From the IMG/VR virus record IMGVR_UViG_2579778982_000025, positions 1 through 20,390 of that record: a stretch of DNA of 20,390 bases. The stretch is one strand, 5' to 3'. This document shows, piece after piece, positions 3,701-16,564 of this stretch. The position numbers and the translations under genes are program-made. The notes under the pieces are model-generated. The model did no database searches. It saw only the letters and a program-made list of their open reading frames with translations, and was not told the DNA's origin. Each line of letters starts with the position of its first letter. Position 1 is the first letter of the stretch. The stretch is from a virus (lineage: Duplodnaviria > Heunggongvirae > Uroviricota > Caudoviricetes).

Positions 3701-4765
3701 TTACACCTGTGCGACGTTATACCATGTGCCATTGATGTATTTTTGTATTGGCCTGAAGATGGCTTCATCATCGCCATCTACTTCACCAATGATTCTTAAT
3801 CCGGTAATTGCGTGTCCGGCTTTTTCATAACGACCACCACGCGCCATCAATTGAACAACACGTGTGCCAAGTCGGACATCTCTCACATAGCGTGAGTCAA
3901 AATTGCCATAATTGTCGGGAATAACTTGCGCACCACAAAGCCAGTTACCGTTATTATCCATGTACGCCTGACCATCGGTGCCATTGGCTGTCCTTGAGTT
4001 ATTAATCATGTAGATGCCAAATTGCTTGTTCCCCAGTCCACCTATCATGAACTTTCGGTCGGCGTGATTCTGGCGAAGTAACGCCTGAGCGCTATCAGTG
4101 TTAACTATATTTTTCCCAAAGATAGCGTTGTTATCGCGCATCTGAATCCACATACCATTACTGCTGTTAATAGCAAAACGGTCTGAAAGTGTCTCCCCTG
4201 AAACATTAAGACCACGCCCCATCGAAACAGCGCCAGTAGCGTTATTAATCCATAATGGCCTTAATCCGTTATAAGTCCCCATGTTGTCACCGGAGTTTGT
4301 CAACATGAAGTATGTATCTGAACCATCATTACGAATAAAGAATCCGTAATTACCATAAGCAATACGTAGGCCGTTTGCTGATTTTGATATGACTTCGCCA
4401 TTTACAATGGCATTGACAAGAACATACAAAGCATCCCATTTAAGATTCATCAGGTCTTTTGTTGTGGTACTTTGTTTGCTTCTCCATTTGAAATATTCAT
4501 TGCCGTTGTCGCCTGTCTCAAACCACATGTATGAATCAGTGTCACCATCGGCATCATTTTTAAATCCAATCTTCGCCCAGTCAGTATTTCGAATCCAAGC
4601 AAGGATTGAGTCATTTTCAAAAGTAAGCCCACCGGACAAGGTATCGCCATTCTTTTGCACGGCGTTACCAACCCTGTTTACCGTTTCCTGCAAACCGAGG
4701 TTTTTGAGAATTGCCTCTGTGTCGTCTGGACGATATTTTTTTCCGCTTTTAGCAACAATCGCGGT
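3701..4765 (-). CDS. tail fibre protein, alternative variable C-terminal module, fused to a 24-codon remnant of a constant region
   Basis: Minus-strand frame is open from the stop at 4766-4768 down to 3701. Passes through the right crossover site with the same NLGLQETVN codons as the left module. Only 24 codons (TAIVAKSGKKYRPDDTEAILKNLG) lie outside the site. C-terminus ...IQKYINGTWYNVAQV. The ORF-track start at 4693 is a TTG inside the crossover site. Confidence 0.7.
   Translation of the reverse strand, partial: TAIVAKSGKKYRPDDTEAILKNLGLQETVNRVGNAVQKNGDTLSGGLTFENDSILAWIRNTDWAKIGFKNDADGDTDSYMWFETGDNGNEYFKWRSKQSTTTKDLMNLKWDALYVLVNAIVNGEVISKSANGLRIAYGNYGFFIRNDGSDTYFMLTNSGDNMGTYNGLRPLWINNATGAVSMGRGLNVSGETLSDRFAINSSNGMWIQMRDNNAIFGKNIVNTDSAQALLRQNHADRKFMIGGLGNKQFGIYMINNSRTANGTDGQAYMDNNGNWLCGAQVIPDNYGNFDSRYVRDVRLGTRVVQLMARGGRYEKAGHAITGLRIIGEVDGDDEAIFRPIQKYINGTWYNVAQV
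4685..4710. repeat. right inversion crossover site (inverted partner of 1635-1660)
   Basis: Plus strand ttcctgcaaaccgaggtttttgagaa; reverse complement aligns to the left site with 3 mismatches. Confidence 0.8.
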
Positions 4766-4774
4766 TTAGAAAGT

Positions 4775-5329
4775 ATGCAATATGGTTATGCGAGGGTGTC
4801 AACTTTTGACCAGAATTTGGAATTACAACTGGAGGCGCTCAGGAGTTCAGGATGTGACCGGATTTTTGAAGATAAAATATCCGGTGCTAAATCAAAACGA
4901 CCAGGACTTGATAAGCTACTGAAGGTGTTACGTCCGGGCGATACGGTTATTGTCTGGAAGCTGGACCGAATGGGGCGTTCTCTGATTCATCTTGTTGATT
5001 TACTTAACCATTTTTTATCAAACAACATTGAGTTTATTTCGATTACGGAAGGGATAAAAATTAGCACTTCAATTGGCCGCTTTGCCTACACGATGCTGAG
5101 TGCAGTCGCAGAGATGGAGCGGGAAAATATGATTGAAAGAACGCGTGCAGGATTGGCGGTGGCAAGGGCTAACGGCAGGATAGGAGGACGCCGCTCAAAG
5201 CTGGCACCAGAGCAATGGGAACAGATCGGAAGGCTTATTGCGAATGGTGTTTCACGTAAGCGGATAGCGATTATCTTCGATGTTACCTTATCCACGCTTT
5301 ACCGCAGGTTTCCGGCTGGGAATCATTGA
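4775..5329 (+). CDS. serine recombinase (invertase/resolvase family), invertase 2
   Basis: MQYGYARVSTFDQNLELQLEAL...VIVWKLDRMGRS...AVAEMERENMIERT...GGRRSKL...STLYRRFPAG, 184 aa. ATG at 4775; the ORF-track 4655 start is an unsupported N-terminal extension. Candidate promoter TTGCCT (4711-4716) - N17 - TATTTT abuts the right crossover site. Clearly divergent in sequence from invertase 1. Confidence 0.8.
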   Translation: MQYGYARVSTFDQNLELQLEALRSSGCDRIFEDKISGAKSKRPGLDKLLKVLRPGDTVIVWKLDRMGRSLIHLVDLLNHFLSNNIEFISITEGIKISTSIGRFAYTMLSAVAEMERENMIERTRAGLAVARANGRIGGRRSKLAPEQWEQIGRLIANGVSRKRIAIIFDVTLSTLYRRFPAGNH

Positions 5330-5473: not shown

Positions 5474-5511
5474 TTATGATTGTGGGTGTCTGGTTGGAAA
5501 CTGACCAGATA

Positions 5512-5630
5512 TGGAAACAAAAAGCCCGCAGATAAATCTGCGGGCTTCTTGCGACATCCACGGAAAACCAACAACAACAATCCATGGGCGCCTCGACAAC
5601 TCCCATTATACGTTGGTTTTCCGTGGACGC
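5512..5630 (-). ncRNA. candidate CopA-like antisense RNA of the repA leader (IncFII-type copy-number control)
   Basis: Two hairpins in the repA leader. A long stem-loop has a 15-bp stem ccacggaaaaccaac (5558-5572) / gttggttttccgtgg (5612-5626) and a ~39-nt loop. On the minus strand it is followed by aagcccgcaga-ttta-tctgcgggctt (5522-5547) and then a T-run (complement of 5509-5520), a rho-independent terminator oriented for minus-strand transcription. The RNA ends are not mapped. Confidence 0.45.
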
Positions 5631-5642
5631 AAGAGCGAACAT

Positions 5643-6491
5643 ATGGATAGACCAATGCCGTCTCTACGTTCCGCTTACGTTTGTAATTTGTCGCCGGAGT
5701 TCCAGCCTCCAAAGCACCATACGCACAAGCTGCCGCTGGTGTTATCTGATGCTTTACAGCGCATTAATGGGCGTGATCTTACGTGTGAGGTTGCGTTCTA
5801 CGTTAATCAACCGTCAGAGCGGAAGCGCCGGATAAACGAGCATCGTCGTCGGGCGATTAATGCTGTGATCGCTGCGATTTTGCACCATGTAAACATCATT
5901 TCTAAGCGGGTTCTGGCTAGTGCTGAGGCGTTGGCTGATTTTTGCGGCCTGTCTACCGTATCCGAAGCTGGGAACAAGTCTATAACGCGCTGTACAAGGG
6001 CGTTGTCGCAACTGAAAGCGTTAGGGTTTATTGATTATGAACGTCGCTGGGATCGGGTGAATAAACAGTATTGGCCAGCGAAAATAGAGATTCGTGATCA
6101 ACTGCTGGAAACCGTTGGTATTACTGAACAAGCATGGAGACGTGCGGTTAGCCAGAAACTTAATTACTTCAATGCGAAGAATAGCGAACGGCTTAAAAAA
6201 GCGATAACGGAGGCTGATTATAAGCGTATTGTTATTCAGGAGCAGATGGAGAATGTATGGCGTCAGAGGAAGACGGCCAGAGAGATAAAGGCAAAACAGA
6301 AAGCAGCGGAGAGAGCTGCGCGTCTTGTTCGGGAAAAGGGAGAGGCCGAACTTCGTCATCAAATCACTAGAGAGGTTAGCCAGGAATTTGCTGATGGCAT
6401 GTATCCTGGAGCTGACCTTGCATATTTACGATCCCTCGTTGAGCAGCGTTATAACAGGTTAAGAAAGACCTGGAAATCACTCCAACATTAA
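5643..6491 (+). CDS. repA: plasmid replication initiator RepA (IncFII RepA1-like)
   Basis: ...GNKSITRCTRALSQLKALGFIDYERRWD... resembles the R100/R1 RepA1 motif (..KLSITRATRALTFLSELGLITYQ..), with an Arg/Lys-rich C-terminal half. Preceded by antisense-RNA-like hairpins and followed by a DnaA box plus AT-rich region. Start at ATG 5643 (MDRPMPSLRS...) is preferred because the ORF-track start at 5511 lies inside the antisense terminator hairpin. An IncFII-type leader peptide may exist in another frame ending at 5648-5650, but I cannot place its start. Confidence 0.75.
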   Translation: MDRPMPSLRSAYVCNLSPEFQPPKHHTHKLPLVLSDALQRINGRDLTCEVAFYVNQPSERKRRINEHRRRAINAVIAAILHHVNIISKRVLASAEALADFCGLSTVSEAGNKSITRCTRALSQLKALGFIDYERRWDRVNKQYWPAKIEIRDQLLETVGITEQAWRRAVSQKLNYFNAKNSERLKKAITEADYKRIVIQEQMENVWRQRKTAREIKAKQKAAERAARLVREKGEAELRHQITREVSQEFADGMYPGADLAYLRSLVEQRYNRLRKTWKSLQH

Positions 6492-7709: not shown

Positions 7710-7891
7710 GGCTTTCGCGTCGAAAATGAGGCGAAACTGAAAACGAGATTTCATTAACAAATAAGCAACATAAAAAACGGTGGAAAACGCCCAGGAAAAC
7801 ATGATCTTTTGAGCGGATTTTTTAGATCCGACAATGAACGGTGATCCGGTGGTGCCGATAACGTCCATTATGTTAAATAGCCCCGTTTTTC

Positions 7892-7945: not shown

Positions 7946-7953
7946 GATTGAGC

Positions 7954-8301
7954 ATGTGGACGGTACTTTTTAGCCAGCGATTTGACGACTGGCTAAATGA
8001 GCAAGAAGACGCTCTTCAGGAAAAGGTTTTGGCTGATTTGAAAAAGCTACAGGTTTACGGACCTGAGTTACCCAGGCCATATGCCGATACCGTAAAAGGT
8101 TCTCGGTACAAAAATATGAAAGAGCTTCGCGTTCAGTTTTCTGGCCGTCCGATAAGAGCCTTTTATGCGTTCGATCCGATTCGCCGGGCCATCGTTCTTT
8201 GTGCAGGAGACAAAAGTAACGATAAACGGTTTTATGAAAAACTGGTGCGTATAGCTGAGGATGAGTTTGCAGCACATCTGAACACACTGGAGAGCAAGTA
8301 A
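7954..8301 (+). CDS. higB: type II toxin, RelE/ParE superfamily (HigB-like, phage Gp49-type addiction-module killer)
   Basis: MWTVLFSQRFDDWLNEQEDALQEKVLADLKKLQVYGPELPRPYADTVKGSRYKNMKELRVQFSGRPIRAFYAFDPIRRAIVLCAGDKSNDKRFYEKL.... Toxin-first order. Stop TAA overlaps the ATG of the downstream HTH gene by 1 nt. The ORF-track start 7948 is a TTG; ATG 7954 has the RBS. Confidence 0.7.
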   Translation: MWTVLFSQRFDDWLNEQEDALQEKVLADLKKLQVYGPELPRPYADTVKGSRYKNMKELRVQFSGRPIRAFYAFDPIRRAIVLCAGDKSNDKRFYEKLVRIAEDEFAAHLNTLESK

Positions 8302-8600
8302 TGAGAACATTAGATGAGGTGATTGCCAGCCGTTCACCTGAAAGCCAGGCGCGAATTAAAGAAATGGCAGATGAGATGATTCTTGAGGTCGGCTTGCAGA
8401 TGATGCGTGAAGAACTCCAGTTATCACAAAAACAGGTTGCTGAGGCGATGGGTATAAGCCAGCCAGCAGTAACAAAGCTGGAGCAGCGCGGAAATGATTT
8501 AAAGCTGGCGACGTTAAAACGTTACGTTGAAGCTATGGGAGGCAAATTAAGCCTGGATGTTGAGCTTCCCACAGGAAAGCGAGTAGCGTTCCATGTCTAA
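8301..8600 (+). CDS. higA: type II antitoxin, XRE-family HTH (HigA-like)
   Basis: 99 aa with central HTH (LSQKQVAEAMGISQPAVTKLEQ). Translationally coupled to the upstream toxin gene. Confidence 0.7.
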   Translation: MRTLDEVIASRSPESQARIKEMADEMILEVGLQMMREELQLSQKQVAEAMGISQPAVTKLEQRGNDLKLATLKRYVEAMGGKLSLDVELPTGKRVAFHV

Positions 8601-9635: not shown

Positions 9636-9908
9636 ATGACGGGTTATGAATTGAAATTATGGCGTCGTGGGATGAACTGGACGCAGGAGCGAGCCGCCGA
9701 AGAATTTGGGATATCGTTGGCTACATATAAGCGATATGAGAAGGGGGAGCCGCCGAGGGTCATTGAGATGGCCATTCGCGTTCTGTCGTTTGACGATATG
9801 GTGAAGGATCTTTCACACCTTGATAAAGACGCGATTCTGTTAAGGCTGCAAACCCTTGTATGGGAAAAGGTTAAAGTGTCGTCAGAATTGGAACAAGGGA
9901 TCAAATGA
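9636..9908 (+). CDS. XRE-family HTH transcriptional regulator
   Basis: MTGYELKLWRRGMNWTQERAAEEFGISLATYKRYEKGE.... RBS GAGGAGG (9624-9630). The ORF-track start 9603 is upstream of the RBS. Confidence 0.7.
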   Translation: MTGYELKLWRRGMNWTQERAAEEFGISLATYKRYEKGEPPRVIEMAIRVLSFDDMVKDLSHLDKDAILLRLQTLVWEKVKVSSELEQGIK

Positions 9909-9957
9909 TCCTTTACGGATCGTTTTATGGTGGTGTAATGTAAGCGCCAGAAAGACA

Positions 9958-9985
9958 AAAACCGCCTTGCCGGGCGGTTTTCAGT
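9958..9985 (+). terminator. rho-independent terminator
   Basis: aaaaccgcc-ttgccg-ggcggtttt hairpin, then tcag. Confidence 0.5.
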
Positions 9986-10543
9986 CTGAAATTTAAATCT
10001 TGCTTGGTAGGCTGGATTTAAAAAGACACCTCTTGATTGGGGCGGCTTTCTTGCGTCTAAAGATAATCAAATCTTTTTGCGCCTGCAACCCCTTTTTTAC
10101 TGGTGCCTGTTTCAGACTCACGCTCGCGTCGTTGTCTTTGCCACTTCGTTGGGTTCGGTGTTTTTGGGCGGAGTGGCGCGCGGGTATGCGTACAAGGGGA
10201 AAGTGTGCTGACGCAAGCCAGGAACAGCGATCTAAACTAAGTCGAGTCTGAGAAAGGCAGGAGTGCGACAACTCGCCTGTGCTCTATGAGCAGAAGAAGG
10301 TATATCAGACGACCAATGGCATGATTGTGGGCCACAGGGCGCACACGGCGGCGAAGCATTGGAAACGATGTGGAGCTATCTGGTGGCATGAGTTCCGGTA
10401 CTCGATCTCGAGCTTTTTTTGATGCTTTTGAGAAGGGGCCGGAACTCCGGTAAAGGGCACCCTGTATGGGGGGAGGGGGGGTTGTGTCTAAAGGAAGATC
10501 CAATACGATATTGCTTTACCCTTATATCTAAAAGGAGATTTCT

Positions 10544-11179
10544 ATGGGGATGCTGGTGGCGTTTATTATTAGCCTGATTTTGTGTTTCTTCGTAGTTCGT
10601 GGTGCATATCGGAAACAATGTGGCCCATCTTCTGGTAGTAAGTTCAAAGCTGTTTTAGTGAGTGGGTTTCTTGGGATTGCTACTTTTGTTGTTGTTAATA
10701 CTCTTGCTGCTGTGGCCTTGATTCCAGAAGACTCCGGCACTACGGCTACTACCGGAGCTGCTTTCGATGGCGTGACCGTAGATAAGTTTAAGCAGCTATA
10801 TAATGATGACCTTGAAGGTATCGCTACATCAGGAAAATCCACCTCCACTATAAGAATTAAGTCAGTTAAACAAGGTAACAACACCGTTGAATTTGCCATC
10901 AATTCATCTGTTAACGGTCGAGCTAGAGTTGATAAGGATGGGAAGATTTCAGAGTTATTATGGCGAGTATCTAAGCCTAGCTCTGATTCCTTGCTTTCTA
11001 TGGCCGTAGCTGTTGAAGTCTTGGATGCATCAAGTGATAGAGACACAGTGATCGCGCAGTTAGAGCAGATTGTTAAATCTGATACGCAGAAAGCTGAGTT
11101 TAAGACTAAGAGAGGCGAGTATTACGTTTCTCGTGACAAATCAGGGCACGTGTCGCTACTGATTACACCGAAATATTAA
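10544..11179 (+). CDS. membrane protein with two predicted N-terminal transmembrane helices, function unknown
   Basis: Strong RBS AAGGAG 7 nt upstream. Hydrophobic segments MLVAFIISLILCFFVV and VLVSGFLGIATFVVVNTLAAVALI, then a Ser/Thr-rich soluble domain. Confidence 0.65.
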   Translation: MGMLVAFIISLILCFFVVRGAYRKQCGPSSGSKFKAVLVSGFLGIATFVVVNTLAAVALIPEDSGTTATTGAAFDGVTVDKFKQLYNDDLEGIATSGKSTSTIRIKSVKQGNNTVEFAINSSVNGRARVDKDGKISELLWRVSKPSSDSLLSMAVAVEVLDASSDRDTVIAQLEQIVKSDTQKAEFKTKRGEYYVSRDKSGHVSLLITPKY

Positions 11180-11188
11180 GAATTGAAG

Positions 11189-11216
11189 AAGCGCCCAAAT
11201 CGGGCGCTTTGTTTTA
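11189..11216. terminator. bidirectional terminator
   Basis: aagcgccc-aaatc-gggcgctt followed by tgtttt, between convergent genes. Confidence 0.6.
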
Positions 11217-12356
11217 TGGTTTTGCACCTGCGGCCAGTTTATCCGCCGATATCTTTATCAGTTCCTGTAGTGTCCTGGCTGGTAGGTTTGCATCCAGTAC
11301 GCTGAGTATGCTGCTGTGATCTGCCTGGTCGACTACTTTGCCTGTCGGTGGTAGTAGCTTGAGCTGAGGATTCAGGTTTTCGTCAAAGCTGATCAGTGCT
11401 CTGGCGTTTCTGAGCAGATCAAGAAGTAAGGCTGATATCACATTTTCCTGAGTCATTGCTGGCAGATTTAGCGCCGCTTTGGTTTTCCCTGTTGCCTTGT
11501 CAAACTCCTTGATTAGTTCCTTCCTGTAGTTCGGTTCCGTTAATAGCCGATTATGCTCTGTTGCCGCGCGGATAATCGTTTTTTCCTGGTACAGTCGTTT
11601 AGCCAGATCACGCTCGTACTGTGTTTTTAACACGCTGCTGATAGCGTTAAAGGCTTCAATGTAGGCCAGCTTGATATCTTTCACGCTTGGACCGTCGATG
11701 CTCTCCATGAGTAAGGTAAATCCGTCTTTTGTCATGCGATAGATTGTTATTTCGCGGTCGCTTCCTTCCAGCGGTCGTTGCTCTTTAAAGAAGTGACGCG
11801 CCGCAGCCGTGCGAGGAATGCGTAGCGCATCGATGGCCATAACGATGGAATTGTTTGTGGTGCTGAATGCCTGGGCAACATCGGCTGAGGTTGTGAGTGG
11901 CTCGTTGTTGCACACTTTAATGTAAAACATCGGTTTGGCGTTGAGCGTATCGACAACCTCACGAGCATTGTTTGGCGAGACGGTAACGGTCGCGGCCGTT
12001 TGCGCGTTCTGGTTGAAGTAGCAGTCTTCCAGCCGTTCGAACACATCCCACGCTTGGTTAGTTTCAAGCATTTTGGCGTGACGTGCAGCCCCGCGTTCGG
12101 TCCAGAGGATTAGTTTTCTAACGTTATTCGCGATGGTTTGAAAATCTCTTAAAGAGATTTTCAAACTTTGGAGATCTGTACCTTTTACAACTATGAAATG
12201 TTTTCCTTCTGTAAACCGGGACTTATTACGGTGGTGATTTCTGTGAAGACATTCGACGCTACAGCCATATAGTTTGGCAAGCAGCTCCGTGGTGATAACG
12301 GGGATCTGGTTATGCAGGATAGGCTGTAGGGTGTTAACGGTCGGAAGCGTTTTCAT
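11214..12356 (-). CDS. phage antirepressor-like protein (ORF6N/Rha-type N-terminal DNA-binding domains, long C-terminal region)
   Basis: 380 aa. N-terminal ...ITTELLAKLYGCSVECLHRNHHRNKSRFTEGKHFIVVKG... resembles ORF6N-type antirepressor domains; a second similar segment ...TTSADVAQAFSTTNNSIVMAIDAL follows. Family assignment is from memory of motifs only. Confidence 0.55.
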   Translation of the reverse strand: MKTLPTVNTLQPILHNQIPVITTELLAKLYGCSVECLHRNHHRNKSRFTEGKHFIVVKGTDLQSLKISLRDFQTIANNVRKLILWTERGAARHAKMLETNQAWDVFERLEDCYFNQNAQTAATVTVSPNNAREVVDTLNAKPMFYIKVCNNEPLTTSADVAQAFSTTNNSIVMAIDALRIPRTAAARHFFKEQRPLEGSDREITIYRMTKDGFTLLMESIDGPSVKDIKLAYIEAFNAISSVLKTQYERDLAKRLYQEKTIIRAATEHNRLLTEPNYRKELIKEFDKATGKTKAALNLPAMTQENVISALLLDLLRNARALISFDENLNPQLKLLPPTGKVVDQADHSSILSVLDANLPARTLQELIKISADKLAAGAKP

Positions 12357-12640
12357 TTTGCACCTCCCATAACTACTTTGGTTACGAGGGAGATTTTTGC
12401 GTCAGAAACAGCGTTATCGTTGCTGGCGATGCGCATAGCTTCGCGCTCGATGATTTCAGCCAGGCGGAATTTATCGGCGTATGAGGCTTTCTTGAGAAGG
12501 ATCTTTACGAGGTTGACGTAATAGTCATGGGGTAAGTTTGTCATGATGATAGTTCCAGTTTTGATATTGGAATAATCACCACCGCTGACGCCAATCAGTG
12601 AGGTGGTGAGACGTACAGGGTTGGCGTAACCGGTCATCAT
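12353..12640 (-). CDS. hypothetical protein
   Basis: Stop overlaps the start of the antirepressor-like gene in an ATGA arrangement, suggesting translational coupling. Start ambiguous between 12640 and an internal ATG (MTNLPHD...). Confidence 0.4.
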   Translation of the reverse strand: MMTGYANPVRLTTSLIGVSGGDYSNIKTGTIIMTNLPHDYYVNLVKILLKKASYADKFRLAEIIEREAMRIASNDNAVSDAKISLVTKVVMGGAK

Positions 12641-12844
12641 GATACCCGGCGAGCCTTACGGCTCCCCCGCACGCCCCACCATAATTCGGGTGTAGCTGTG
12701 CTTTACGCATAAAAAAACCGCTAACGCGGTATGCGCCATGATGATTATCGGGACGCCAATCCCGACCGTAGATTTTGCTACGGCTCGGAAAGTGTCCACC
12801 AATGGCGCATTTATGTCAATACAGCGGGATTTTAACAGACTAAA

Positions 12845-12857: not shown

Positions 12858-12883
12858 GTTTGAATGCGGGGCTTTTAATTTTC

Positions 12884-12912
12884 TTGATATGCTAAAAACG
12901 GGAATGTATAGT
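12884..12912 (+). promoter_or_regulatory. sigma70-type promoter for 12995..13534
   Basis: TTGATA (12884-12889) - 17 bp - TATAGT (12907-12912). Confidence 0.5.
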
Positions 12913-12994
12913 TCCTGTAAGGAATCAATTAGTCCTGAGTTATGGTGTTTTGTTAAAGTCGGGAACAAGAAAAAATTCAGTATGGGGATAAAAA

Positions 12995-13534
12995 ATGATT
13001 GAACTGTCAAAAAACTCATGTTTTTCAACCATTCACCTAATGATCATAAAAGAACTTAGGCTAGAAAGAGGTGTGCATCAAGGAGTACTGGCTCAAGCTG
13101 CTGGAAAAACACCAAACGCATGGACAAAGATAGAGAACGGGCAGTCTGTATTAACAGTTGACGCCCTTTTTGGTGCTTTCACAGCCCTTAATATTACTCC
13201 AGTGAATTTCATGTCATTGGTAGAAAATCTTATTCCCGAATTTAACCGTTATGGTTACTTCTTTTTCCCTGGAACAATCAGTCAGGACGAGGATAACCTT
13301 TTACCTCTGATGCTGCGTTACTTTAATAGCAAGGGGTTTGAAGCATTGAGAAATAGGCCATTCGAAAGAGTTAGCATTAGCTCAATGGGATTCTCATTTG
13401 GGGGCGGCATCCCTGTTACTCCAACTGCTGTAATGTATTGTTGCGATGAAGCATATAGAAATTGGGTCGATAACGGTGCTGATGTGGATAATCGAGATTA
13501 TCTGGAGTCATCAACAGGTCGTGGACTGTTTTAA
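12995..13534 (+). CDS. HTH (XRE-like) domain protein with C-terminal domain of unknown function
   Basis: 179 aa. N-terminal LMIIKELRLERGVHQGVLAQAAGKTPNAWTKIENGQSV is HTH-like. RBS GGGGA upstream of ATG 12995. Confidence 0.55.
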   Translation: MIELSKNSCFSTIHLMIIKELRLERGVHQGVLAQAAGKTPNAWTKIENGQSVLTVDALFGAFTALNITPVNFMSLVENLIPEFNRYGYFFFPGTISQDEDNLLPLMLRYFNSKGFEALRNRPFERVSISSMGFSFGGGIPVTPTAVMYCCDEAYRNWVDNGADVDNRDYLESSTGRGLF

Positions 13535-13553
13535 TGAGTGAAGAAACAAAAAA

Positions 13554-13580
13554 ACCGTCCTATTGAGGACGGTCCTTTCG
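13554..13580 (+). terminator. weak rho-independent terminator
   Basis: accgtcc-tattga-ggacggt followed by cctttcg, preceded by an A-run. Confidence 0.35.
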
Positions 13581-13726
13581 TGCTGATCGGATTCGCGGTC
13601 CTTTCAGCATTACGTTGTTGTATAAACAACCACGCAAGCACAAGCAGCAAATTGATTTTACTCAAAAGGTAATAATAGTCCACTATTATACATCAAAAAA
13701 TTGTGGTTCTTGTTGTGTCAGCAAAC

Positions 13727-13739
13727 TCACAGATTGTGG
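13727..13739. promoter_or_regulatory. operator-like palindrome TCACA-GAT-TGTGG
   Basis: Same motif class; flanking aaactcac matches the site at 16685. Confidence 0.35.
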
Positions 13740-13971
13740 GTAGGTTACTGATTTTGTGAAAATAAACTGTTTTTTTCGTTTAATTTCTTTCCTATTACTA
13801 ATCTTAAAATAATCGTAAAATACCTGTGGACCTTCCCGCCGATTCGCACCCGGGCACCGACTTTAGGGGAGGATTTCCTGTTGCCGTACATGCAAGCACA
13901 AGCAGCCGTGCTTGCTCTCGCGTTGTTTTCGTCGGTGGGGATGTCGTGAAACGGCCTGTAAGGGCCACACA

Positions 13972-14094
13972 ATGAAAAAATACTACATGTGTATTTTTAT
14001 CGTTGTTACTGGAGCTTTGTTTACGCCACATGGGGAGGGTTGGAAGATTACTGATAACGCTCTGAATGTGACGATAAACATTAGCAGCAAGTAG
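13972..14094 (+). CDS. small hydrophobic peptide (40 aa), candidate small membrane protein or type I toxin
   Basis: MKKYYMCIFIVVTGALFTPHGEGWKITDNALNVTINISSK. RBS AGGG 7 nt upstream. Strong terminator immediately downstream. Confidence 0.4.
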   Translation: MKKYYMCIFIVVTGALFTPHGEGWKITDNALNVTINISSK

Positions 14095-14099
14095 CGATT

Positions 14100-14123
14100 A
14101 GGCCCCTTCGGGGGCCTTTTTTA
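14100..14123 (+). terminator. rho-independent terminator
   Basis: aggcccc-ttcg-ggggcct followed by tttttta. Confidence 0.7.
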
Positions 14124-14636: not shown

Positions 14637-15290
14637 TTACGCGGCAGTAGTCAGAGCCTCAAGCTGGTTGATAATCCCCTGAATAACGTCGTCTGCCTTT
14701 TTGCGTGGCGCAACGTATGAGCACTCAATGAGGCTTAAGCCCTTATCCTGAGCTTTGCTCAGAGCTGGCTTGTGGGGAATGTACTTATCGACAACAAAGT
14801 ATGGCGTATTAGCCAGGTACTCTTGGGCTTCAATGTAGTCGGCTTCGTTTTCAGCCGCGCCTGAGAACACCATGCAAATTTTCTTGATTGGCACACCCTT
14901 TTTAACGATGCCATGAGCTGTGTTAACGGTGGTTTCCAGGTCATCGGTAGAGAATCTGGTTGGCAAAATAACCATATCCAGAAATTCAGAGAGCTTCGGT
15001 ACTGATTCAGATGCGTAGGCACCGCCATCGACGATAACCAGGTCGTATACTTCTGATTCGATGATTTTCTGGACTTGTGATGGTGTGCCGCACGGCTGCG
15101 CCGCGATTGCAGGTTCGATATTGTTGGCCATTCTGCGTTGTACCCAACGCGTTACCGTTCCGTTAAGCACATCCATATCGATCAGGCATACATTCCAGCC
15201 GGCCTTTGCATAAGCAACTGCTAAAGCACGGGCAATTGTTGATTTGGTTACGCCGCCTTTTCCGTTGAAAATACCTACAGAGATAGTCAT
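14637..15290 (-). CDS. parA: ParA-family partition ATPase (small type Ib, deviant Walker A)
   Basis: MTISVGIFNGKGGVTKSTIARALAVAYAKAGWNVCLIDMD... has the KGGxxK[ST] deviant Walker A at the N-terminus. 217 aa from ATG 15290; the ORF-track start 15305 adds 5 residues without an RBS. Confidence 0.75.
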   Translation of the reverse strand: MTISVGIFNGKGGVTKSTIARALAVAYAKAGWNVCLIDMDVLNGTVTRWVQRRMANNIEPAIAAQPCGTPSQVQKIIESEVYDLVIVDGGAYASESVPKLSEFLDMVILPTRFSTDDLETTVNTAHGIVKKGVPIKKICMVFSGAAENEADYIEAQEYLANTPYFVVDKYIPHKPALSKAQDKGLSLIECSYVAPRKKADDVIQGIINQLEALTTAA

Positions 15291-15305
15291 TTGTCGAGAC
15301 TCCAT

Positions 15306-15907: not shown

Positions 15908-16564
15908 TCATAACCAGTTGACAACACTAACTACGCGGCCAAGAACTTTATAACGCTTAAATTCCTCGTTATTCAGATGATTAGTGTTCATTTCAGCGTC
16001 CCTTTCGGTTGACAGCATAACAGCATTGTCACCCGGTATGACTCTACAGTGCCTCAAAACAACCAGGCCATTTCTGTCTTCAAGGGCATAGATCCCCTCA
16101 TGAATCTCTGTATCGTCTGTATCAATCAGGACTTGGGAGCCAGGGGATATTGTTGGTGACATTAACTCATCGTTGCTCTGGAGAACTGACAGAGACGATG
16201 GGTTGATGTTCTTGCTTCGTAGAATCTCCTGTTCTATCGCCAGCACTGGCTTTTCTCCGGCGTGCGATGCTATGTCATTTTTTATAGCTACAAGCCCAGG
16301 AATAACAGGAGCGTTAGTATTCTGGGGTGGGAACGGGTTATCTGTTAAGCACGCGATATAAGGCGCTGATGCTTTCAGGGCGTGCGCGATTTTCTTGATG
16401 GCAGGTATAGATGGTTGTCTTAATCCGGCCTCATAGTTCTGCAAGGTGCTTAAGCCTATTCCAGTGACTTGCTGGAGATCTCCGGCAGTCATGCCGGATT
16501 GTTTCCGTAGAGTCTGAATGCGCAGACCTATTTCTTTCTTGATGTTCTCGTCGTTGCTTTTCAT
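15908..16564 (-). CDS. CI/LexA-like phage repressor (N-terminal HTH, C-terminal S24 peptidase-like autocleavage domain)
   Basis: 218 aa. N-terminal HTH (LRKQSGMTAGDLQQVTGIGLSTLQNYEAG). C-terminal region with MSPTISPGSQVLIDT and KVLGRVVSVV resembles the Ser/Lys dyad regions of LexA and lambda CI. Divergent from a Cro-like gene, with operators between. Confidence 0.8.
   Translation of the reverse strand: MKSNDENIKKEIGLRIQTLRKQSGMTAGDLQQVTGIGLSTLQNYEAGLRQPSIPAIKKIAHALKASAPYIACLTDNPFPPQNTNAPVIPGLVAIKNDIASHAGEKPVLAIEQEILRSKNINPSSLSVLQSNDELMSPTISPGSQVLIDTDDTEIHEGIYALEDRNGLVVLRHCRVIPGDNAVMLSTERDAEMNTNHLNNEEFKRYKVLGRVVSVVNWL

Follow-up and report, generated by a model that had tools for sequence, protein, structure and literature searches.

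An optional cassette in the window, as we call the whole stretch of 20,390 nucleotides from virus record IMGVR_UViG_2579778982_000025 that was analysed, carries a single gene for a DNA-binding protein, and is best described as an XRE autoregulator that travels as a single-gene cassette, with a C-terminal fold of its own and a predicted operator that is conserved. The reading that sequence comparison supports best is that of a solitary, negatively autoregulated XRE repressor cassette. The whole explanation, in which this autorepressed cassette would owe its benefit to an action in trans on incoming phages or mobile elements, is given a probability of about 0.45.

The window stems from a myovirus-type phage-plasmid of about 48 kb with an IncFII RepA, ParA and a CI-like repressor. 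The region resembles circular plasmids of about 48–52 kb from Escherichia coli, E. albertii, E. fergusonii, Salmonella and Klebsiella, and is also matched by three Yersinia myophages (vB_YpM_39, 41 and 44), in both cases at 89–93% identity. One complete relative, NZ_CP070025, carries terminase, portal, capsid, contractile tail and tail-fibre genes together with an invertase and holins, and also encodes RepA, ParA and a CI-like repressor; this combination of virion genes with replication and partition genes identifies it as a phage-plasmid. The features of the window to which we refer are collected in Table 1.

Table 1. Features of the XRE cassette and its surroundings, in window positions
Feature	Position	Strand	Remarks
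Hin-type invertase	4655-5329		tail-fibre genes also in window
IncFII RepA	5511-6491		
Gp49/HigB-like toxin, then XRE antitoxin HigA	7948-8600	+	toxin 81 bits
ORF6N/pRha antirepressor gene	11214-12640	-	preceded by ash-like ORF
C4 antisense RNA	12599-12686	-	Rfam, 81 bits
isrK	12711-12784	-	Rfam, 70.9 bits
Presence/absence cassette, ~679 bp	12862..13540	+	promoter, operators, 5' UTR and XRE gene; alignment A1
Sigma-70-type promoter TTGATA-N17-TATAGT	12884..12912	+	10/12 consensus positions; conserved in alleles
Predicted operator O1, GGAATGTATAGTTCC	12901..12915	.	palindrome enclosing -10 hexamer
Predicted operator O2, GGAATCAATTAGTCC	12921..12935	.	one mismatch; 20 bp from O1, at about +2 to +16
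Extra GGGAAC half-site in 5' UTR	12961..12966	+	conserved in alignment A1; putative function
XRE-family CDS	12995..13534	+	ATG ORF, 179 aa (190 aa in relatives)
XRE/Cro-C1 helix-turn-helix domain	13046..13201	+	residues 18-69
Family-specific C-terminal helical region	13208..13480	+	residues 72-162
T4 run (T5 in ATCC 25922 allele)	13529..13532	+	stop 11 codons early: 179 aa vs 190 aa
Hairpin CCGTCC/GGACGG	13555..13572	-	outside cassette; reads as intrinsic terminator of TimR-like sRNA
ryfA	13826-14122	+	Rfam, 144.7 bits
Small ORF MKKYYMCIFIVVTGALF..., 40 codons	13972-14094	+	inside ryfA
ParA	14637-15305		
CI-like HTH protein	15908-16564		strong HTH_3; Peptidase_S24 weak (E 0.00085, 19.4 bits, below 23.3 cut-off)

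The initial annotation had described the gene product as an N-terminal XRE-like helix-turn-helix (HTH) joined to an uncharacterised C-terminal domain, and both parts of this description hold. The open reading frame begins at an ATG and encodes 179 residues, of which residues 18–69 score above the Pfam cut-offs for both HTH_31 (27.6 bits, cut-off 27) and HTH_3 (26.5 bits, cut-off 23), and HTH matches in Pfam were obtained for 53–54 of 63 family members. The C-terminal 90–100 residues have no match in Pfam, PHROGs, NCBIfam or PADLOC, either in the window protein or in the 63 relatives, these collections recognising the HTH alone. A model built by AlphaFold2 with the family alignment (pLDDT 84.9, pTM 0.81) has a five-helix XRE core followed by four short helices, and the Pfam scores and this fold place the protein in the XRE/Cro-C1 superfamily. 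In the model a short N-terminal strand (residues 6–9) appears to be paired with a strand at residues 88–91, and the C-terminal helical part of about 90 residues appears to pack with the HTH into one globule. The FGGGIPVT motif, which had been singled out as a glycine-rich hallmark of the C-terminal domain, falls in a long, low-confidence loop at about residues 120–143; this loop is variable (pLDDT about 59), and the motif is not a feature of the family. Structure prediction and remote-homology searching, which had been suggested as a check, recognised the XRE HTH and left the C-terminal region without relatives outside the family. No structural neighbour of the C-terminal region was found, the full model reached a TM score of at most 0.40 against the BFVD viral structures with the HTH alone matched, and a sequence-profile search of the PDB gave HTH-only matches, that to SaPI Stl over residues 11–115 (E 0.011) being non-significant.

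The family to which the protein belongs is widely distributed. A word-indexed search found 28 clusters with 47–99% identity to the window protein by local BLASTP, from Vibrio, Photobacterium, Deefgea, Advenella and metagenomes, and an HMM search of 1.8 billion representatives found 774 sequences at E<1e-3, 102 at E<1e-10 and 21 at E<1e-30, mostly of 160–190 aa and aligned end to end. A distant branch of equal length and layout occurs in Pseudomonas, Limnohabitans, Endozoicomonas and Photobacterium piscicola, and its members share the motif ...LRELR.E.G.HQAQVADWIGKTPSAWTKIE.... A profile of the C-terminal region alone recovers only proteins with this HTH, plus a few short fragments, and as the region is thus never seen without the HTH, fragments apart, it is not a shuffling domain. 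Conserved positions in this region (E99/D100, L102/L103, Y109, S112, G114, R125, S127, P143/T144, Y148/C149, W157 and D159) make up the motifs ED..LL, Y..S.G, R..S, PT...YC and W.D. No transmembrane segment, nuclease, NTPase or other effector signature is visible in it, and it is most simply regarded as an oligomerisation and/or partner-binding module private to the family. No publication was found under the protein accessions or the name of the Yersinia phage, and the main text of a 2026 paper on P2/P4 hotspots (PMC13586616) contains none of the terms 'HTH', 'helix-turn-helix', 'XRE' or 'transcriptional regulator'.

The gene is preceded by TTGATA-17-TATAGT, the top promoter-like site of the region, and the promoter claimed for it was confirmed, the site matching 10 of 12 consensus positions and being conserved in three of the four aligned alleles (the window, CP070025 and vB_YpM_41). 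Promoter-like sites are no commoner in the region than chance would give (4 found, 4.4 expected), so that the case for this promoter is made by its position, its conservation and the flanking operators and not by the scan alone. These predicted operators are two copies of a 15-bp palindrome with the consensus GGAAY-N5-RTTCC, which overlap the -10 box and the transcription start. Within the 20-kb window O1 and O2 alone have no more than one mismatch, O1 is the only window site to score at least 9/10 with the N5 spacer, and the whole 48.85-kb relative has one N5 site at this threshold, at the XRE gene's own promoter. Neither the window nor the whole related plasmid has further operators of the kind that a regulon would need. 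A scan of IMG/VR with the double operator GGAA-N7-TTCC-N5-GGAA-N7-TTCC likewise gave no regulon signal, with 28 matches and none adjoining a family gene. Recurrent paired GGAA-N7-TTCC palindromes, e.g. GGAAAATGTATTTCCGCGATGGAAAAATGATTTCC, are present on unrelated IMG/VR contigs with no family gene on the stretch (L043/L044 and L047/L059), and these may be operators of another regulator.

The same palindrome is found upstream of homologues, with the form GGAACATAATGTTCC in V. parahaemolyticus, GGAACAATAAGTTCC in Deefgea, GGAACTAAATGTTCT in V. splendidus, GGAACAATACATTCC in an IMG/VR contig and GGAACTAATTGTTCC in locus L033, beside GGAATGTATAGTTCC in the window. Either the palindrome or reiterated GGAAC half-sites precede homologues in Vibrio, Deefgea, Pandoraea, phage contigs and other loci, and in several 16-kb loci no other site scores as well as the palindrome, which precedes the start codon by 8–123 bp. 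Within positions -160 to -1 of 16 independent loci, GGAAC/GTTCC was observed 22 times against 3.8 expected (Poisson P 1.4e-10), and paired sites 20 bp apart occur in the window and in four further loci (L011, L014, L018 and L023). The arrangement is not uniform. The perfect palindrome of V. parahaemolyticus closely precedes the best -35/-10 pair instead of overlapping it, which means that the regulatory logic may differ between family members, and the ATCC 25922 allele and an Advenella locus have direct repeats of the half-site, not a clean palindrome. In the latter, a metagenome-assembled genome (L009), the AGGAAC half-site recurs in at least six tandem 20-bp repeats of TTTTCAGGAACATGCATATC at about 7740–7870, upstream of the homologue at 8001 and adjoining an IS66 element, an unusual iteron-like operator array. 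On the ATCC 25922 plasmid (L004, 4260–4517) the upstream region differs from window positions 12862–12994 and is about 120 bp longer, with the direct repeats GGAACTTTAACGTGA and GGGAACTTAACGTGA and a further GGGAAC half-site replacing the O1/O2 palindromes; the comparison suggests a promoter swap with the half-site retained.

The window gene thus has what is expected of an autoregulated repressor, a cognate palindromic operator, as predicted, overlapping its own promoter, and judged by the conservation and position of the sites the protein very likely regulates its own expression through O1 and O2. We propose that one dimer would bind each palindrome, and that two dimers on one face of the helix probably cooperate via the family-specific C-terminal helical region. 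Binding would shut off the gene's own strong promoter and so keep the protein constant at a low level, and any protein lost by titration would be replenished by negative feedback. The conserved predicted operator makes reporter and binding assays of this scheme straightforward.

Promoter, operators and gene are gained or lost as a unit. In alignment A1, plasmid pMB9880_3 joins window position ~12861 directly to ~13540, a clean absence, and among related plasmids about 15 have the cassette and at least 38 an empty site with about 929 bp between the flanks. None of the related plasmids has alternative cargo at the site, which holds the cassette or nothing and is therefore not a multi-cargo hotspot. 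Naturally isogenic phage-plasmids exist, with the cassette or with the clean empty site. Among 5426 complete E. coli genomes the cassette is present in 20, always on plasmids of 48–52 kb and never in the chromosome. Target-site duplications at its ends are not convincing, imperfect GTTTNAATG similarity alone being present, and no conserved partner gene of the family was found among about 25 loci examined.

Pairwise dN/dS values of 0.12–0.22 among four alleles (codons 1–162) indicate that the gene is maintained by purifying selection, and this bears on the possibility that the cassette is a decaying remnant, e.g. an orphaned restriction-modification (R-M) controller or a leftover repressor with no current function. 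Such decay might be read from the absence of the gene from most related plasmids and from the shortening of its tail by a one-base change in the T run. The early stop is, however, unlikely to matter much, since it removes only residues beyond ~162, which are not conserved and of which the last ~28 occur in two unrelated versions among relatives, and different bacterial classes share both the two-part architecture and the operator. Given these points, and above all the dN/dS values, a dead remnant is highly improbable.

Several known groups of regulators resemble the protein in part, and it may well work as the small autoregulators among them do (C proteins, ClgR and antitoxins). The C proteins of R-M systems (C.Esp1396I, C.BclI and C.AhdI) are about 80 aa long and encoded with a restriction gene, whereas the XRE family has an extra region of about 100 residues and a different operator, GGAAC-N5-GTTCC. 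No R-M gene flanks the cassette in the window or is found on the whole related plasmid, and no R-M partner was seen in any locus; with no adjoining restriction endonuclease gene and with neighbours that vary across loci, an R-M controller protein was rejected. For the N-terminal 80 residues the best matches in structure and sequence are ClgR and other small stand-alone XRE regulators (PDB 5woq, 3f51 and 3f6w). To judge from their PDB descriptions these are chromosomal regulators of defined regulons, and they differ in having neither the C-terminal region nor the mobile-cassette lifestyle. SaPI Stl, SPC32H Rep and CI-type repressors are likewise found on temperate elements and likewise join an N-terminal XRE HTH to a C-terminal partner-binding or oligomerisation part, but a repressor of the CI/LexA type was rejected as the XRE protein has no Peptidase_S24 match. 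Unlike the BrxR/CapW WYL proteins and CapH, the family has no WYL domain or partner protease, has no fixed position or orientation beside a neighbouring system and is often entirely solitary. An Aca regulator was also rejected, the gene not lying downstream of an acr gene in the same operon, as was any known system in PADLOC-DB 2.0, where matches are at the level of the HTH alone (residues 16–78; HTH_VI at 1e-4 to 1e-6, RmrA and Control_protein).

The type II antitoxins HigA, HipB and PezA, to which there are weak profile matches, likewise combine an HTH with palindromes that overlap the promoter, and in PezA the HTH is followed by a C-terminal helical part. A type II antitoxin in the usual sense was rejected, with no adjacent toxin in about 25 loci and a TIGR03070 score of 24.5 bits against a cut-off of 71.65. 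A related proposal is that of an orphan antitoxin or anti-defence factor with a layout like that of HigA, HipB or PezA, which mobile elements would keep to neutralise a toxin from another locus. Antitoxins typically have autoregulated palindromes, the carriers are phages and a phage-plasmid, and there is some likeness at the HTH level to the HigA and HipB structures and to HipB/Y4mF (TIGR03070, E 1.9e-5, far below cut-off). This proposal is nevertheless given little weight, for a toxin gene adjoins the family gene in 0 of about 25 loci, the family also occurs in chromosomal defence islands and housekeeping contexts, and the HigB/HigA and timP/TimR modules of the window are complete without the XRE gene.

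The genomic contexts of the relatives have no fixed orientation or constant neighbours and differ in every lineage examined. In phages the gene adjoins the integrase where a P2-like prophage or island ends, separates ogr from the portal gene in a P2-like Vibrio phage, in a gap reminiscent of the tin/old position of P2, or is found directly upstream of the tail-sheath gene in another P2-like contig, a placement that recalls the Z/fun position of P2. It also occurs near Abi_2 in a P2-like phage-plasmid and, in a siphovirus, as a moron on the opposite strand, flanked by NinG and the terminase. Elsewhere its neighbours are defence genes, namely ThsB (3e-135) with a type I R-M system and SIR2; GajA (2e-196) with the GmrSD-type enzyme Orf5 (3e-186); NsnA/PD-T4-2_A with a HEPN protein; a split HamB helicase with a PIN protein; DUF499; Cas1/Cas2; and SLATT_5, a PLD nuclease and HigB. 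Gabija, Thoeris, Hachiman, GmrSD, Abi_2 and Cas genes are thus represented beside relatives, and defence genes lie within about 3 kb of the family gene in at least ten independent loci. Solitary copies among housekeeping genes are also known, stably in the chromosome of one abundant environmental lineage and in another metagenome. In Deefgea rivuli (L007, 4181–9430) the Hachiman-like HamB is split into overlapping ORFs of 412 and 442 aa with a 252-aa ORF beside them; the XRE family gene and a PIN_4 protein come next, and this may be a decaying or unusual Hachiman locus.

This pattern is that of a classic 'defence island resident', and it is also to be expected of a promiscuous mobile-element regulator; HTH regulators are common on mobile elements, which weakens any argument from guilt by association. 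Any defence-related role of the cassette is accordingly put forward as tentative, with the balance somewhat against it. A serious, though rather unlikely, rival reading is that of an ordinary accessory transcription factor, which would regulate itself and a few host or neighbour genes in lysogenic conversion or element housekeeping, with no part in defence. That the XRE HTH is the sole recognisable domain, that classical palindromes lie over the promoter and that chromosomal copies persist amid housekeeping genes, in the abundant environmental lineage and the other metagenome, all agree with it, but no second operator exists on the whole plasmid, the neighbours vary by lineage with no fixed orientation, and the gene recurs beside defence genes and in phage accessory positions. 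Were the cassette merely to regulate itself and a few genes, it would be an ordinary mobile-element regulator of minor importance.

The explanation that we prefer, a solitary autorepressed cassette acting in trans, starts from the same absence of a second operator. As there is no other operator on the element, and as the cassette is optional yet selected, any benefit must come in trans; and as the family is in addition recurrent in defence islands and phage accessory positions, it probably acts on incoming elements. The gene of this unnamed family of ~170-residue XRE DNA-binding proteins would arrive in the phage-plasmid as a self-sufficient 'moron' cassette, and its product might act on incoming phages or mobile elements by repression or, perhaps, by binding one of their proteins via the C-terminal region. 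Killing of the host is unlikely as a mode of action since no effector-like domain is visible.

The last point also applies to a single-gene abortive-infection or sensor protein, the role at which the initial annotation had hinted, in which autorepression would limit a potentially toxic protein until a phage cue lifted the repression or activated the C-terminal region, which would then harm the cell or the phage. The optional, moron-like cassette with its predicted tight autorepression, the purifying selection (dN/dS 0.12–0.22), the relatives in defence islands and P2-like phage accessory positions and the conserved polar residues of the C-terminal region (ED..LL, R..S, PT...YC and W.D) would all suit such a protein. 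It is nonetheless quite improbable, given that the C-terminal helical piece has no effector signature or structural neighbour and is modelled in one globule with the HTH (pTM 0.81), that PADLOC matches are confined to the HTH, that some members sit stably amid housekeeping genes and that the sole mechanism with sequence support is ordinary autorepression via the conserved operator.

A bolder form of the trans-acting explanation, which we consider unlikely, is an effector-less anti-phage or anti-mobile-element system in which the XRE protein would capture a phage component through its C-terminal region and serve as a self-refilling sponge or decoy repressor. Binding of the phage component would pull the protein off its own operators, so that the cell would make more of it. 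Such a sponge would account for the strong promoter and tight operators, for the absent partner gene and for the placement in defence islands and P2-like accessory positions. The family is compact and solitary and recurs beside Gabija, Thoeris, Hachiman, GmrSD and Abi genes as well as in P2-like accessory positions, and if phage resistance proved true it would provide an effector-less, HTH-based single-gene defence system and a named function for a C-terminal fold without structural relatives.

The gene had further been described as a self-contained promoter-to-terminator unit with its own terminator, and here the annotation has to be amended: promoter and gene do form an accessory insert, but the terminator belongs to the plasmid backbone. 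The hairpin downstream of the gene is kept in related plasmids without the XRE gene (alignment A1), and its tail is U7 on the minus strand but UCCUUUC on the plus strand. The minus-strand RNA from 13655 to 13540, which ends in this hairpin and U7, has a fold of -43.7 kcal/mol (z = -5.8). Farther downstream the 15-mer GCAAGCACAAGCAGC, which is present at 13892–13906 inside ryfA, recurs at 13634–13648, with no such recurrence expected by chance (0 expected), and over these 15 nt the minus-strand sRNA candidate (~13545–13650) is therefore complementary to the ryfA/timP mRNA next to it. The type I toxin TimP is encoded by the ryfA mRNA, and its arrangement with the antitoxin sRNA TimR has been published (PMC7667032); the window matches that layout in having ryfA with a small ORF, a divergent folding sRNA and the shared 15-mer. 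The region at 13545–14122 thus appears to be a plasmid-borne type I toxin-antitoxin like timP/TimR, with the sRNA as a candidate. Retention of the hairpin without the gene, the minus-strand U7 and the TimR-like fold and complement together assign the hairpin to the opposite-strand TimR-like sRNA as its terminator, which might at best also end the XRE mRNA as a weak, bidirectional stop. The XRE stop codon of the 190-aa alleles falls within the loop of this hairpin.

The corrected regional map should help annotation of a widespread family of E. coli phage-plasmids. The gene order is isrK-C4-ash-ant, XRE cassette, TimR/timP and parAB, so that the cassette is placed between the isrK-C4-ash-antirepressor module and the timP/TimR type I toxin-antitoxin, and the early operon of the window includes a Ref nuclease and DUF3560. 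C4 RNA and isrK, which like ryfA reach the Rfam gathering score, are in tandem upstream of the ash-like ORF and antirepressor genes, a layout reminiscent of the immI region of P1. The start of the annotated 'ash family' ORF overlaps the C4 RNA, and conservation of the first ~170 bases of the C4/isrK stretch extends to Stx2c phages and Gifsy-1. Together with ParA, Gp49/HigB-HigA and timP/TimR give the element at least two modules for addiction or stability within a span of 7 kb. A second variable spot of the accessory region is seen at window positions 9908–11214, which are about 500 bp longer than the corresponding stretch of NZ_CP070025 (2902–3712) and contain overlapping ORFs at 10544–11179 (+) and 10528–11046 (-) with no Pfam match.
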